A stretch of DNA of 24,017 nucleotides from a virus. The translations under genes were made by a program, and so were the position numbers. Shown here piece after piece: positions 11,176-13,802 of this stretch. The stretch lies in UHGV virus genome UHGV-0096010; one strand, 5' to 3'. The notes below the pieces were generated by a model. It worked only from the letters and a program-made list of their open reading frames with translations. It was not told the origin of the DNA and made no database searches. The number at the start of each line of letters is the position of its first letter. The first letter of the stretch is position 1.

Positions 11176-11970
11176 CTATACTAATACGAAATTCTTCAAA
11201 AACTCTTCCAAAGACTCGCCTGGATTATCGTTTTCTGATGAAATCATGCCTATTCTCCACTGTTCCAATATTTCCTCTTGAATTGGGTTTGGTCGTGGTA
11301 AGAAAATATAAGACTTTGGCTGTGCTTCTTCTAACTTTTGCTCTTTCCAAAGCTTGGACAATTTATAAAATAGTAGTCTGATATTAATATCTGACAGACT
11401 ATACCCAATAAAAAGAACTGATTTCCCGAGAACATCAGATCTAAACTTTATATCCAATGGAGTTTCAAACTCTAACCGTTGAAAGTAACTTGTTTCATCT
11501 AATACAATTGAACTATCGTCATCAAAGTCTCCATGAAACTTGATTATTTGCGTCTTATTATTATCTATTTTTGCAATATCAGAAACTGATGATATTTTTA
11601 TATACTCTTTACCATAGTTTGATAAGGCAGTTTCAATCCATCGGTCGTAATTTGTAGTATATATAATAGGGAAATTAGCTTTAGCTATGTACTCGTGAAC
11701 TTTAGACTTATTGATATCTATATCGCTAGAGTGCCACATTCTATCCATCCAGCTTCTAAGAGGCCCTATCTTGCCTTTTTTCAACTTGTAATACTCAGCT
11801 AACTCTAGTGCACTACCGAATGTACGATATATATCTGGGTCATAACCTAACTCAGTTGCAATGTGATCAACCAATTGACTCCATGATGGCAAACCTAAGT
11901 TCATTGACACACCAGCACCAACAAAAAGGATAACATTTCCTTTTTTATAATCAGCAAGTAATTGCTCCAT
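11176..11970 (-). CDS. SIR2-like (SIR2_2-type) protein, predicted NAD+-consuming effector (KomC-like)
   Basis: 264 aa; motifs [48 protein letters not shown] characteristic of defence-associated SIR2 domains; GGAGG SD; ATG overlaps upstream stop by 1 nt (TAATG); AT-rich. Confidence 0.75.
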
Positions 11971-12524
11971 TATTTTCCTCCCTCTAATAGATATTTTTTA
12001 AATTTATCGAAAGCTTTTTTCCTCATAGATATTTCATTTTTCCTATCCCCCATCTCAGCAAAAGTCTCACTTTCGCCATCAGGAATAAATATACAATCCC
12101 ATTGAAAATCTCGAGGGCCTTTTGGCACAGGAGATATCGTACCTTGAGTTTCACCTTCGAAAATATAGATTTTCATCGAATCACAATAGCCGATTATTGT
12201 TTTAGCAACTAAACGAGGGTTTTCACTTGTTCCTAATAATTGTGAAAATTTATCAGCTTGAAGCTTATCCCAAAATATTTGCGTTAAGCCACCCGGGAAA
12301 CCATTGAGGCTTTCTATATATAGTCCAGTATGTTCGACAAAGACCGGTCTTCCAACTAATTTAAATGCTTTTAATAATTTATCTTTAATTAACGCATGGA
12401 CATTTTCAGTTTGAATTTCATCTATAGAGTGTTCAGATGCTAATACAACTACTCCTGTACCTGATAGAATTTCATTTATTTCTTTAATTTTATGTCTATT
12501 TCTGGTTATAAATCGAATGTTCAT
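11970..12524 (-). CDS. HAM1/ITPase-family (non-canonical purine NTP pyrophosphatase-like) protein, possibly a divergent nucleotide-binding subunit (KomB-like)
   Basis: 184 aa; N-terminal T-x-N-x-x-K-x-x-E ([11 protein letters not shown]), [22 protein letters not shown] and C-terminal SMRKKA align by eye with RdgB/ITPA motifs, with several canonical residues replaced; AAGGTG SD; ATGA overlap with upstream gene. Confidence 0.7.
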
Positions 12525-13501
12525 TTCACACCTTTAAGAAAGCTATATCGCTTTTGAGTTTCATACATATTATCCATGACTATAAAATTCTTGGTCTCTT
12601 GCATAAATGCGACATAATCTTCGCTCAAGCTTGATCTGTGAATAGCTGGATTATCTGAGCAAATCACAAACGGAATATTATGGTTAATCATTTCGCCAAC
12701 TGGATGAGGATCGACATCAGAGACTGCACCTGTCAAACGATTACTAATAGGACAAACCTCAATGCAAATGTCCAGTTCTCTAATCAAATCCATTATCTCC
12801 GGAGATCTTATAACAGCAGTACCATGTCCGATACGATCAGCTCCATAACTAATTATGGCATTCCTTATGTTATCAGCATTTCCAGTCTCACCCGCATGAA
12901 TTGTTATGCCTAGTCCATATTTGTCTTTAGCACTTCTAAATAAACTTGCAGTCTCAGGTGGTGGTGTTATATCTTCATTACCAGCCAAGTCCAAACCAAT
13001 CACCCCTGCTGGACATCCTAGACTTTTGTAAGCACCAAGAAGAGAACGAAGATGTTCGGGAGCATATTCACCACGCGTAATAGTTAGAATAAGCCCGGCT
13101 TGAATGTTGAATTTTTTAGAAAAAAAGTCAATATCATCTAAAACCCACTTCAATGCTTCGGAAACAGAAATGTTATTAAGGAGTGCTATGTATATAATGC
13201 TATTTCTTAATTCAACAAACTTAATATTCTCAGCAATTAGATTTGAAAATGCACTCTCAATCATAATATATAAATCAAAGCGACTTGCAGGAATGAGCCT
13301 TAAAAACTGCCATGGCTTTAAATAATCCACTAGTGATCTTGCTGGGTGTGTTACATTCAAGTCAGTATCTATATTAAAGTGTTCAGGCATTTCAATAATA
13401 TTTTTTTCTAGGACCCCCCTAATTACTTGAGTGCTTACCAATCCATTCAAATGAACATGTAATTCTCCTTTATCCATCATTCGAGCTTCGTAAAGATCCA
13501 T
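12521..13501 (-). CDS. adenosine/AMP-deaminase-family metallo-hydrolase (KomA-like)
   Basis: motifs in canonical order: HVHLNG (His-x-His zinc site), GLDLAG, HAGE, RIGHG, SDNP; preferred start ATG at 13501 puts the HxH pair at residues 15/17 as in characterised adenosine deaminases; ORF-track start 13549 is an alternative. Confidence 0.75.
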
Positions 13502-13802
13502 TTTAATTACCTTATATATCCAAACTCTTAATTTTCTCTTTTTTACCATAGGATTAATCCAAAATAAAGACCTTGTTGACTAAACCCTCATGTACAAAAT
13601 GCACACTTACTCAAAAGGATCTGGAGGTAATCTCGACCTTCATGATTTAGTTCCTAGGGATAAGCAGAAATCTAGCACTGGATTAAAATTTAAAAATAAT
13701 AATCAATAGGTTATAATGGTTTTTATTCGCATCCATGGGATCTGCTGCTGCCCGCATGATGTTGGATGCGACGGCGATGGCACGACCTCACCCGGTGAAA
13801 CG

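Follow-up and report, generated by a model that had tools for sequence, protein, structure and literature searches.

Whether genes for an adenosine-deaminase-like, a HAM1/ITPase-like and a SIR2-like protein, lying side by side on UHGV virus genome UHGV-0096010, serve housekeeping metabolism or antiviral defense is the question raised by the locus studied here. We addressed it for the window (the whole stretch of 24,017 nucleotides that was analyzed), starting from an initial annotation, made from the sequence, that had read the trio as a nucleotide-signaling, NAD-depleting defense operon and had named the Kongming (KomABC) system as its match. Our results make it almost certain that the locus is an allele of Kongming that looks functional. 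Kongming has been characterized in E. coli NCTC13216 (CAADJL010000005.1; Zeng et al., bioRxiv 10.1101/2024.12.20.629578; Li et al., Nat Commun 2026, PMC13454610; PDB 8zsf-8zsi, 9xvc). Specifically, KomC is identical to the PDB 8zsf chain at 264 of 264 residues, and KomB is identical to the PDB 8zsg chain at 182 of 184 (98.9%), the differences being K18E and E177K (K18 and E177 in NCTC13216, E18 and K177 here). Gene order, domains, and the residues defined by mutagenesis also agree, so that this identification was right. The system is already known, having been published between 2024 and 2026 together with structures, and the locus is a rediscovery of it. Its use is in annotation: the product names in RefSeq are still those of housekeeping enzymes, and no Kongming model is included in PADLOC v2.0.0. 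The copy itself differs little from what is known, by two residues in KomB and, relative to a Rac-borne allele, by one in KomA.

Table 1. Features of the window, by position.
Feature	Position	Strand	Description
thrW (tRNA-Thr) 3'-end copy	10604..10649	-	46 nt; att-site remnant; aligned to the thrW region of E. coli RMDEC364
Left boundary site (LE)	10897..10920	.	GTCTGTTAT-GAGCGA-AAAGCGGAC; hybrid of context-specific outer arm and cassette inner arm
komC	11176..11970	-	SIR2-domain NADase effector, 264 aa; PF13289, E=1.5e-26
komB	11970..12524	-	Catalytically dead HAM1/ITPase-like putative dITP sensor, 184 aa; PF01725, E=1.8e-39
komA	12521..13501	-	Adenosine-deaminase-fold enzyme, 326 aa, predicted to make the inosine nucleotide from which the signal is built; PF00962, E=8.9e-47
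komA-tetR divergent intergenic region	13502..13802	.	Presumed native promoter region of komABC
TetR/AcrR-family regulator gene	13803..14249	+	PF00440, E=7.9e-07; RefSeq TetR/AcrR; inside the 3.5-kb cassette
Right boundary site (RE)	14386..14409	.	GTCCGCTTT-TGGCAC-ATAGCAGCC
Small serine recombinase (Pin/Gin-type invertase)	14577..15167	-	PF00239, E=9.6e-52, plus HTH_7; adjoins the P2-like tail-fiber module

Operon structure

The komA, komB, and komC genes are three neighboring, intact minus-strand open reading frames (11176-13501) with coupled starts. An ATGA overlap joins the komA stop to the komB start, a TAATG overlap joins the komB stop to the komC start, and Shine-Dalgarno sites precede komB (AAAGGTG) and komC (GAGGGAGG), all of which bears out the tightly coupled arrangement first described. 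The block had been delimited as 11176-13549, and while its genes stand, its end does not: position 13549 is where the longest open reading frame begins, whereas the komA ATG lies at 13501, where it is preceded by AAGG and agrees with both the RefSeq start and the His15/His17 numbering of the Kongming papers. Similarly, the impression that AT content is far higher in the block than around it is correct on the right only, where the GC content of komABC (34.9%) compares with 54.1% for positions 14406-24017; on the left, the thrW island is similarly AT-rich (37-39% GC). The promoter of komABC can be placed only presumptively, in the divergent komA-tetR intergenic region, because a consensus promoter scan around the operon did no better than shuffles, as was also true of the terminator scan. 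This intergenic region is conserved jointly with komABC up to 13783 in a Citrobacter copy without the TetR gene. An Rfam search of the whole window gave no matches.

Hallmarks of the three proteins

The profile searches that the initial annotation had proposed recovered its three domains at significance levels far beyond chance (Table 1), in the Kongming order PF00962-PF01725-PF13289. The komA-komB-komC order is also kept in Citrobacter, Pseudomonas, Halomonas, Salinicola, Planctomycetes, and Nitrospiraceae loci. Across 13-17 homologues down to 42% identity, KomA H15/H17, KomB N9/K12/E15/H65 (14 homologues), and KomC H146/D194 (14 homologues) are invariant, and all are present here.

KomA contains the complete adenosine deaminase motif set in the canonical order first reported: HVHLNG at residue 15, GLDLAG at 169, HAGE at 202, GHG at 225, and SDNP at 282 (326-aa numbering). 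Residues H15, H17, H202, E205, H226, and D283 are invariant among 18 homologues. The active-site His15 and His17, both within HVHLNG (residues 15-20), are the pair whose H15A-H17A double mutation abolished defense in the published system (bioRxiv 10.1101/2024.12.20.629578; PMC13454610). An Asp-Asn in place of the canonical Asp-Asp had been correctly pointed out: KomA reads SDNP, versus TDDP and SDDP in the two best solved adenosine deaminases, and its Asn is invariant in the 18 KomA homologues. This change may be tied to altered substrate handling. On TIGR01430, the NCBIfam model of housekeeping adenosine deaminase, KomA scores 169.9, below the cut-off of 216.55, and its sole PADLOC match is to the ADA part of the CARF_ADA profile (E=3.6e-36). 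Further, KomA is identical at 325 of 326 residues to that of a Rac-borne allele in which KomB and KomC have exactly the PDB sequences, the difference being S78Y (S78 there, Y78 here).

KomB, in which the HAM1/ITPase signature had been seen by eye and is supported by PF01725, has the features of the "defensive HAM1" clade as defined in the Kongming papers, i.e., His65 in place of the catalytic acidic residue with the nucleotide-binding Asn9, Lys12, and Glu15 retained. The eight residues that those papers assign to dITP recognition (R8, H11, K49, T66, F140, Q141, W142, and R168) are all unchanged relative to PDB 8zsg, because only positions 18 and 177 differ between the two proteins; the first of these is three residues away from E15, a binding residue. 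KomB also falls below the NCBIfam cut-offs for XTP/dITP diphosphatases (NF011396, 158.1 versus 203; TIGR00042, 118.3 versus 145.35).

In KomC, the defense-type SIR2 motifs that had been listed are all present and in the same order (GAGVS at 18, LPSW at 27, TTNYD at 105, FHGD at 145, and GYSLSD at 189), and PF13289 supports the domain. Both His146, the catalytic residue of SIR2, and the NADase-specific Asp194 are found at these positions; their importance comes from published mutants in the Kongming papers. The best PADLOC matches of KomC are ThsA (E=8.9e-32), LmuA, and Dsr SIR2 domains, with the match to the ThsA profile spanning only positions 12-228 of 478, which is its SIR2 part. A search with a defense-system finder had also been suggested; PADLOC, run on the three proteins, gave only such generic SIR2 and ADA matches and no Kongming call, because the 2023 library of v2.0.0 predates the system.

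Mechanism and relation to other defense systems

Everything said here on biochemistry and on phage phenotypes comes from work on the near-identical NCTC13216 system (bioRxiv 10.1101/2024.12.20.629578; PMC13454610). On that model, KomA, which in these papers acts on dAMP/dADP and not on dATP, would deaminate dAMP (and dADP), yielding by itself only dIMP. A phage deoxynucleotide monophosphate kinase would serve as the trigger by phosphorylating dAMP or dIMP to the diphosphate, and the host NDK would then complete the synthesis of dITP. This dITP would be bound by KomB, as a HAM1 protein with His65 replacing the catalytic acidic residue; KomB and KomC would share one filament, whose remodeling would switch on the SIR2 NADase of KomC. 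The resulting NAD+ collapse would kill the infected cell before phage release (abortive infection). The initial annotation had arrived at the same logic, with a deaminase making an inosine signal, a HAM1-like protein binding it, and a SIR2 protein depleting NAD+, and this agrees with the Kongming papers, which refine it in that the signal is specifically dITP.

Two known strategies come close to this scheme. First, Thoeris likewise couples a signaling nucleotide to a SIR2 NADase, NAD+ depletion, and abortive infection, and the SIR2 domain of its effector ThsA is the most similar to that of KomC in PADLOC and PDB searches. However, its signal is a TIR-made cADPR isomer, whereas that of Kongming is dITP from deamination and phosphorylation, and its sensor is a fused SLOG domain, whereas Kongming uses a separate, dead HAM1 protein. 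Thoeris requires a ThsA effector with SLOG together with the TIR protein ThsB; searches with the three proteins gave neither a TIR nor a SLOG match. Second, RADAR (RdrA/RdrB) and the CRISPR-associated Cad1 (CARF-ADA) also use an ADA-fold enzyme that yields inosine nucleotides in defense, but there the deamination of ATP/dATP is the effector chemistry itself, while in Kongming the deamination of dAMP/dADP only makes the messenger. RADAR comprises an RdrA ATPase and a large RdrB; PADLOC returned no RdrA or RdrB match, and KomA has 326 aa. The CARF domain of Cad1 is absent from the komABC proteins.

With NCTC13216, the window shares the three genes, their order, their Pfam domains, all catalytic, ligand-binding, and activation residues, and a prophage-borne location. 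Judged from its sequence, the window allele (KomB K18E and E177K; KomA S78Y) would be expected to behave like the NCTC13216 system and to be expressed in its prophage-border context. It is very unlikely that these substitutions, or the context, abolish function or expression and leave an inactive or attenuated allele. The three substitutions do set it apart from the Rac-borne allele that matches the solved structures, and the thrW-border, P2-like context was seen in 0 of 5,426 complete genomes. Yet the three reading frames are intact with coupled starts, the substituted positions are not among the residues reported as functional, and independent contigs, among them one isolate assembly of E. 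coli and four assemblies of metagenomes, carry an identical allele, a recurrence that argues for its maintenance.

There is next to no chance that the genes instead serve purine salvage, pool sanitation by an ITP/XTP pyrophosphatase, and sirtuin deacetylation, as their RefSeq names imply. The best NCBIfam matches are indeed those housekeeping families, but every score is under the curated cut-off that a housekeeping Add or RdgB should exceed, and the catalytic position of KomB, where an acidic HAM1 active-site residue would then be expected, is occupied by His65, by which the catalytically dead, defensive HAM1 clade is recognized. Moreover, KomC has exactly the sequence of an NADase effector of known structure, the operon is confined to 1.5% of E. 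coli genomes, where it lies in prophages, and for the near-identical system, published mutant and phage assays have refuted such a role. A different SIR2 system (Thoeris-like, DSR-like, or SIR2-HerA-like) that adjoins nucleotide-metabolism genes by chance can be dismissed, since the ThsA, LmuA, and Dsr matches concern SIR2 domains while KomC, at 264 aa, comes with no SLOG, ThsB/TIR, HerA, or large DSR body, and its exact identity together with the translationally coupled komAB settles the assignment.

Distribution and genomic context

In E. coli, Kongming is an accessory, prophage-borne system. The operon is present in 81 of 5,426 complete genomes (1.5%), all copies having at least 99% DNA identity and all being chromosomal, and its usual site is the Rac prophage, with the full Rac-type left junction in 73 of the 81. 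Among deposited phage genomes and plasmids, a search for the cassette gave no match. While most carrying complete genomes have Kongming in Rac, the site here is a thrW-border hotspot beside a P2-like tail-fiber/invertase module. Both landmarks that had been noted there are real. The tRNA att fragment is 46 nt that are identical to the thrW 3' end (ARAGORN found no intact tRNA in the window) and marks the end of a thrW-integrated island (1-10603). The prophage tail-fiber module has the invertase adjoining it, and a 100%-identical contig (L005) carries the P2-like gene order R-S-V-W-J-I-H-G.

Boundary sites of the cassette

Together with the divergent TetR gene, komABC forms a 3.5-kb cassette between two 24-nt palindrome-derived sites (Table 1). 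The TetR gene is linked to komABC in every E. coli cassette copy examined. We considered it as a conserved fourth component of Kongming and rejected this, since neither the 98%-identical Citrobacter copy nor any of the distant komABC loci carries it; the Kongming preprint, its text searched for "TetR", does not mention the gene.

The left site pairs as an inverted repeat with positions 14386-14407, and the boundary motif has two matches in the window versus 0.01 expected. In canonical form, LE has the arms GTCCGCTTT and AAAGCGGAC around the loop GAGCGA, and RE has the same arms around the loop TGGCAC; the outer arm and loop track the flank, while the inner arm tracks the cargo. Homology between prophage contexts stops within LE, and in E. 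coli 203740, a different cargo is bounded by the same right flank and RE. Both site types frame many unrelated cargo cassettes at no fewer than three hotspots in E. coli, one being the flxA locus of the K-12 Qin prophage, and the flanks of two hotspots occur in 48-70% of E. coli genomes. Cassette arrays contain joints in which RE and LE are separated by 18 nt. The komABC cassette itself was found, precisely bounded, at Rac-like, Qin-like, Mu-like, and P2-like/thrW-border sites.

Our analysis tentatively suggests that komABC-tetR could belong to a large and as yet undescribed family of cargo cassettes in E. coli that have two heterospecific 24-bp palindromic sites and are exchanged by a dedicated site-specific mechanism, a reading that we hold to be possible rather than probable. 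The recombinase might be a small (200-aa) IntK-like tyrosine recombinase inside some arrays, the gene for which occurs in 932 of 5,426 genomes, or a neighboring small serine recombinase. Alternatively, REP-like boundary hairpins may be combined with homologous or microhomology-mediated exchange. The thrW-type "empty" joint, seen in 17 genomes, has no palindrome and is joined at a CATA microhomology, which neither proves nor excludes site-specific insertion. A reading of the sites as hairpin terminators or REP-like stabilizers is weakened because the window sites are hybrids and have lost their fold (-0.7 and -1.5 kcal/mol, versus -8.6 and -8.3 for the canonical sites) and are without T-runs. 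We also provisionally set aside the possibility that the palindromes are crossover sites of the adjacent Pin/Gin-type invertase, given that they are not known to resemble hix/gix half-sites and that the Rac and Qin hotspots are not beside an invertase.

The arrangement recalls integron gene cassettes and pdif (Xer) modules, in which unrelated cargo is likewise delimited by short imperfect palindromes, with hybrid junction sites and tandem arrays, and in which regulator-plus-enzyme and defense cargo is common. Unlike these, the cassettes described here have two site types for their two ends, distinguished by the loops GAGCGA and TGGCAC, and no dedicated recombinase was identified; we know of no sequence similarity of the boundary sites to attC or dif. 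In a literature search, 15-mers of the boundary sequences occurred in no paper and 9-mers only as unrelated primers, and the sites were described neither in the literature found on hotspots, morons, and hairpins nor in the Kongming papers examined. A 2026 paper has linked small serine recombinases to defense genes; a search of its text for "palindrom" found no mention of palindromes.

If a dedicated exchange mechanism does exist, it would explain the shuffling of defense and other accessory genes among E. coli prophage hotspots, and new cargo could be sought simply by the sequence of the boundary sites. Other cargos between the sites include the candidate defense genes PDC-S39/DUF4209, a HEPN protein, and RnlAB. 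A search for an "empty" Rac-type hotspot found none without both sites, and the smallest that was found keeps both around 224 nt of non-coding DNA.

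Identity and architecture of the operon

The three-gene operon encodes Kongming (KomABC), an already known anti-phage system, in an allele two residues (KomB) and one residue (KomA) away from the structure-matching copy. The identification, which the initial annotation had proposed, is settled by matches to solved structures. Specifically, KomC is identical at 264/264 residues to the chain titled "KomC, SIR2 domain protein, NADase" in PDB 8zsf/8zsg/8zsh, and KomB is identical at 182/184 residues to "KomB, HAM-like protein" in 8zsg, with K18E and E177K as the sole differences. 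The source of these solved proteins is the E. coli NCTC13216 Kongming system, which Zeng et al. (bioRxiv 10.1101/2024.12.20.629578) described and Li et al. (PMC13454610) analyzed structurally. For KomA, the comparison was made with the Rac-borne copy of the operon, which encodes exactly the KomB and KomC of the PDB entries, rather than with NCTC13216 KomA itself; 325/326 residues matched (S78Y). Every residue proven essential in the Kongming papers is present (KomA H15 and H17; KomB N9, K12, and E15; KomC H146 and D194), as are the diagnostic KomB H65, in place of a catalytic acidic residue, and the KomB dITP contacts R8, H11, K49, T66, F140, Q141, W142, and R168. The window's allele recurs unchanged in several metagenome contigs and in the assembly of an E. 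coli isolate (L004; L-numbers denote comparison contigs or loci).

RefSeq product names imply housekeeping enzymes, a reading argued against by the NCBIfam scores of KomA and KomB, which fall below the curated cut-offs for housekeeping adenosine deaminase and XTP/dITP diphosphatase. PADLOC v2.0.0, the library of which is older than Kongming, returned only generic ADA and SIR2 matches for the three proteins, while Pfam profiles supported all three annotated domains (see table), and the motifs quoted for them were all found in the order stated. So, too, was the compact minus-strand organization, with an ATGA overlap joining komA to komB, a TAATG overlap joining komB to komC, and Shine-Dalgarno sequences 5' of komB (AAAGGTG) and komC (GAGGGAGG). 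Two details required revision. First, the annotated end of komA is merely its longest-ORF start; translation almost certainly begins with the ATG at 13501, giving 326 aa, because RefSeq uses that ATG in identical copies, AAGG precedes it, and the published His15/His17 numbering then fits. Second, the block, described as far more AT-rich than its flanks, is so relative to the P2-like module on its right (34.9% versus 54.1% GC) but not relative to the left-hand thrW island (37-39%).

Features of the window and IntK-like genes of two comparison contigs
Feature	Position	Strand	Description
thrW-integrated island	1-10603		AT-rich; 99.7% identical to islands of many E. coli genomes
Dit-like gene	50-727		"phage baseplate protein"
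Flotillin family gene	775-2616		613 aa (RefSeq name)
Copy of thrW 3' end	10604-10649		46 nt
LE	10897-10920		24-nt palindrome-derived site
komC	11176-11970	-	264 aa; SIR2_2 PF13289, E=1.5e-26
komB	11970-12524	-	184 aa; Ham1p_like PF01725, E=1.8e-39
komA	12521-13549	-	longest ORF, 342 aa; A_deaminase PF00962, E=8.9e-47
KomA Ser-Asp-Asn-Pro	12653-12664	-	residues 282-285
tetR	13803-14249	+	TetR/AcrR-family regulator, divergent from komA
RE	14386-14409		24-nt palindrome-derived site
Invertible tail-fiber region	14577-17906
Serine invertase	14577-15167	-	Pin/Gin type, right of komABC
Glycine-rich ORF	15158-15832	+	PF21722; opposite to invertase
Tail-fiber assembly gene	15976-16584	-
Tail-fiber gene	16584-17906	-
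IntK-like gene, L004	12290-12892		200-aa tyrosine recombinase
IntK-like gene, L114	7784-8386		200-aa tyrosine recombinase

Conservation across relatives

Scanning one genome per species, we found komA homologues at 42-98% identity, with komB and komC directly downstream in almost every case. This arrangement extends through Citrobacter, Pseudomonas, Halomonas, Salinicola, Planctomycetes, and Nitrospiraceae, as well as IMG/VR viral contigs, and the functional residues listed for the three proteins are invariant in these homologues. At two Pseudomonas loci (L024 and L028), tblastn found no komB or komC downstream of komA homologues ~48% identical; such loci may have decayed, or their KomA-like deaminases may work with other proteins.

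Equally invariant is the KomA Ser-Asp-Asn-Pro motif. The annotated substitution of Asp-Asn for the canonical Asp-Asp is borne out by the two closest solved adenosine deaminases, which have Asp-Asp at Asp283-Asn284. Asn284 is kept in 18/18 KomA homologues, down to 42% identity, and Asp-Asn is therefore a clade-wide feature, one that the main text of the Kongming preprint does not discuss. It might underlie the preference of KomA for dAMP/dADP.

Each komABC copy observed in E. coli is accompanied by tetR, but a Citrobacter copy of 98% identity and all the distant Kongming loci lack it. This makes the gene a local passenger or regulator outside Kongming; the Kongming preprint makes no mention of it. 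Its product may be a local repressor of komABC.

Mechanism

The Kongming papers, which concern the near-identical NCTC13216 system rather than the window's allele, report that dAMP is the best KomA substrate and that dADP, AMP, and ADP, though not dATP, are also deaminated. The trigger is supplied by phage deoxynucleotide monophosphate kinases, which phosphorylate dAMP or dIMP, with host NDK then finishing dITP synthesis. KomB, inside a KomB-KomC filament, binds dITP but neither ITP nor canonical (d)NTPs, and the resulting filament remodeling converts KomC into an active NADase. NAD+ depletion then yields population-level (abortive) protection (bioRxiv 10.1101/2024.12.20.629578), which phage T5 evades with a 5'-deoxynucleotidase that eliminates dAMP. 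The annotated logic, in which a deaminase-derived inosine nucleotide is bound by the HAM1-like protein and SIR2 depletes NAD+, matches this scheme; the initial annotation did not include phage kinases as the trigger, dAMP/dADP as the substrate, or the complex of KomB with KomC. We infer that the window's allele is equivalent in behavior to the reference and expressed in its setting.

Distribution and genomic setting

Among 5,426 complete E. coli genomes, 81 carry komABC at ≥99% identity, in each case chromosomally; collections of deposited phages and plasmids gave no match. A complete left junction of the Rac type was seen in 73 genomes. In NCTC9041, the operon lies inside the Rac prophage between DUF1971 and DUF977 genes. 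In the window, the operon adjoins the tRNA att fragment and tail-fiber module noted initially: the fragment copies the thrW 3' end (the window holds no intact tRNA), and the invertible tail-fiber region, in which the PF21722 ORF looks like an alternative fiber C-terminus, is followed on the right by P2-like baseplate and tail genes. Other products of the thrW island are HTH regulators and numerous hypothetical proteins, and nine of its ORFs gave zero PADLOC matches.

This thrW-island/Kongming/P2-like arrangement seems rare in sequenced isolates, as it is in none of the 5,426 complete genomes, none of which covers ≥80% of the window, yet its junction is shared by several independent metagenome contigs (L005-L008), with L005 (ENA ERZ1303392 NODE_69) 100% identical across 20.5 kb. 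The same tail-fiber, invertase, and cassette module occurs in a Mu-like prophage contig (L009).

Cassette boundary sites

What the Rac, Qin-like, Mu-like, and P2/thrW contexts have in common is a 3.5-kb stretch carrying komCBA and tetR, bounded on the left (LE) and right (RE) by sites of the form GTCCGCTTT-N6-AAAGCGGAC, with GTCCGCTTT and AAAGCGGAC as arms and a loop that is always GAGCGA in LE and TGGCAC in RE. The window holds two motif matches (0.01 expected), and 67 IMG/VR contigs contain the exact palindrome, against a rough chance expectation of ~1. Across contexts, the flank keeps the outer arm and loop, while the cargo keeps the inner arm. Both window sites are hybrids that have lost the ability to fold (-0.7 and -1.5 kcal/mol, versus -8.6 and -8.3 for canonical sites), which looks like a recombination scar rather than a maintained hairpin. 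RE-18 nt-LE joints occur within cassette arrays (L071, L114, and L004), and the minimum unit is 272 bp and ORF-free (L119). In 17 genomes, a thrW-type joint lacks any palindrome and is closed at a CATA microhomology.

A possible reading is that the sites are REP-like boundary hairpins and that exchange proceeds through homologous or microhomology-mediated recombination. Our results suggest a REP-like element family reaching much wider than E. coli. The same arms with other loops form tandems spaced by 40-45 nt in GC-rich viral contigs (L063, L082, L090, L091, L097, and L106), and a Salinicola Kongming locus has a same-arm palindrome 1.3 kb downstream of komC (L025 9616-9639). The IntK-like protein, which has only an Xer-like catalytic domain, is a candidate cassette recombinase: its gene lies inside two arrays beside palindromic sites and occurs in 932/5,426 E. 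coli genomes, now and then on plasmids. We found no description of the LE/RE sites in the searchable literature; a 2026 paper reports defense loci marked by small serine recombinase genes, with no mechanism given. The cassette-boundary pattern is the only element here that may be new.

LE/RE pairs also surround at least seven other unrelated cargos in IMG/VR contigs with the exact palindrome: HAD + NUDIX, DUF7380/DUF4209 (PADLOC candidate PDC-S39), GNAT + XRE-cupin, GNAT + LysR, HxlR + NmrA-like, a 310-aa protein annotated elsewhere as HEPN, and IS-disrupted versions of the DUF4209 cassette (contigs and loci showing sites: L001, L004, L011, L044-L110, and L111-L120). Three E. coli hotspots use the sites: a lambdoid one from hokD/DUF1971 to DUF977 (left flank in 2,597/5,426 genomes); a Qin-type one beside relB (relB-intK), where K-12 MG1655 carries flxA between sites at 1,645,981 and 1,646,972; and the window's own thrW border (left flank in 3,789 genomes), with RnlAB among its other cargos. 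In other strains, this border holds RnlAB with IS1 or adjoins a P4-like satellite with Drt3ab (L003 18184-21908; L112 1322-4561), cases that illustrate stacked defense hotspots around thrW.
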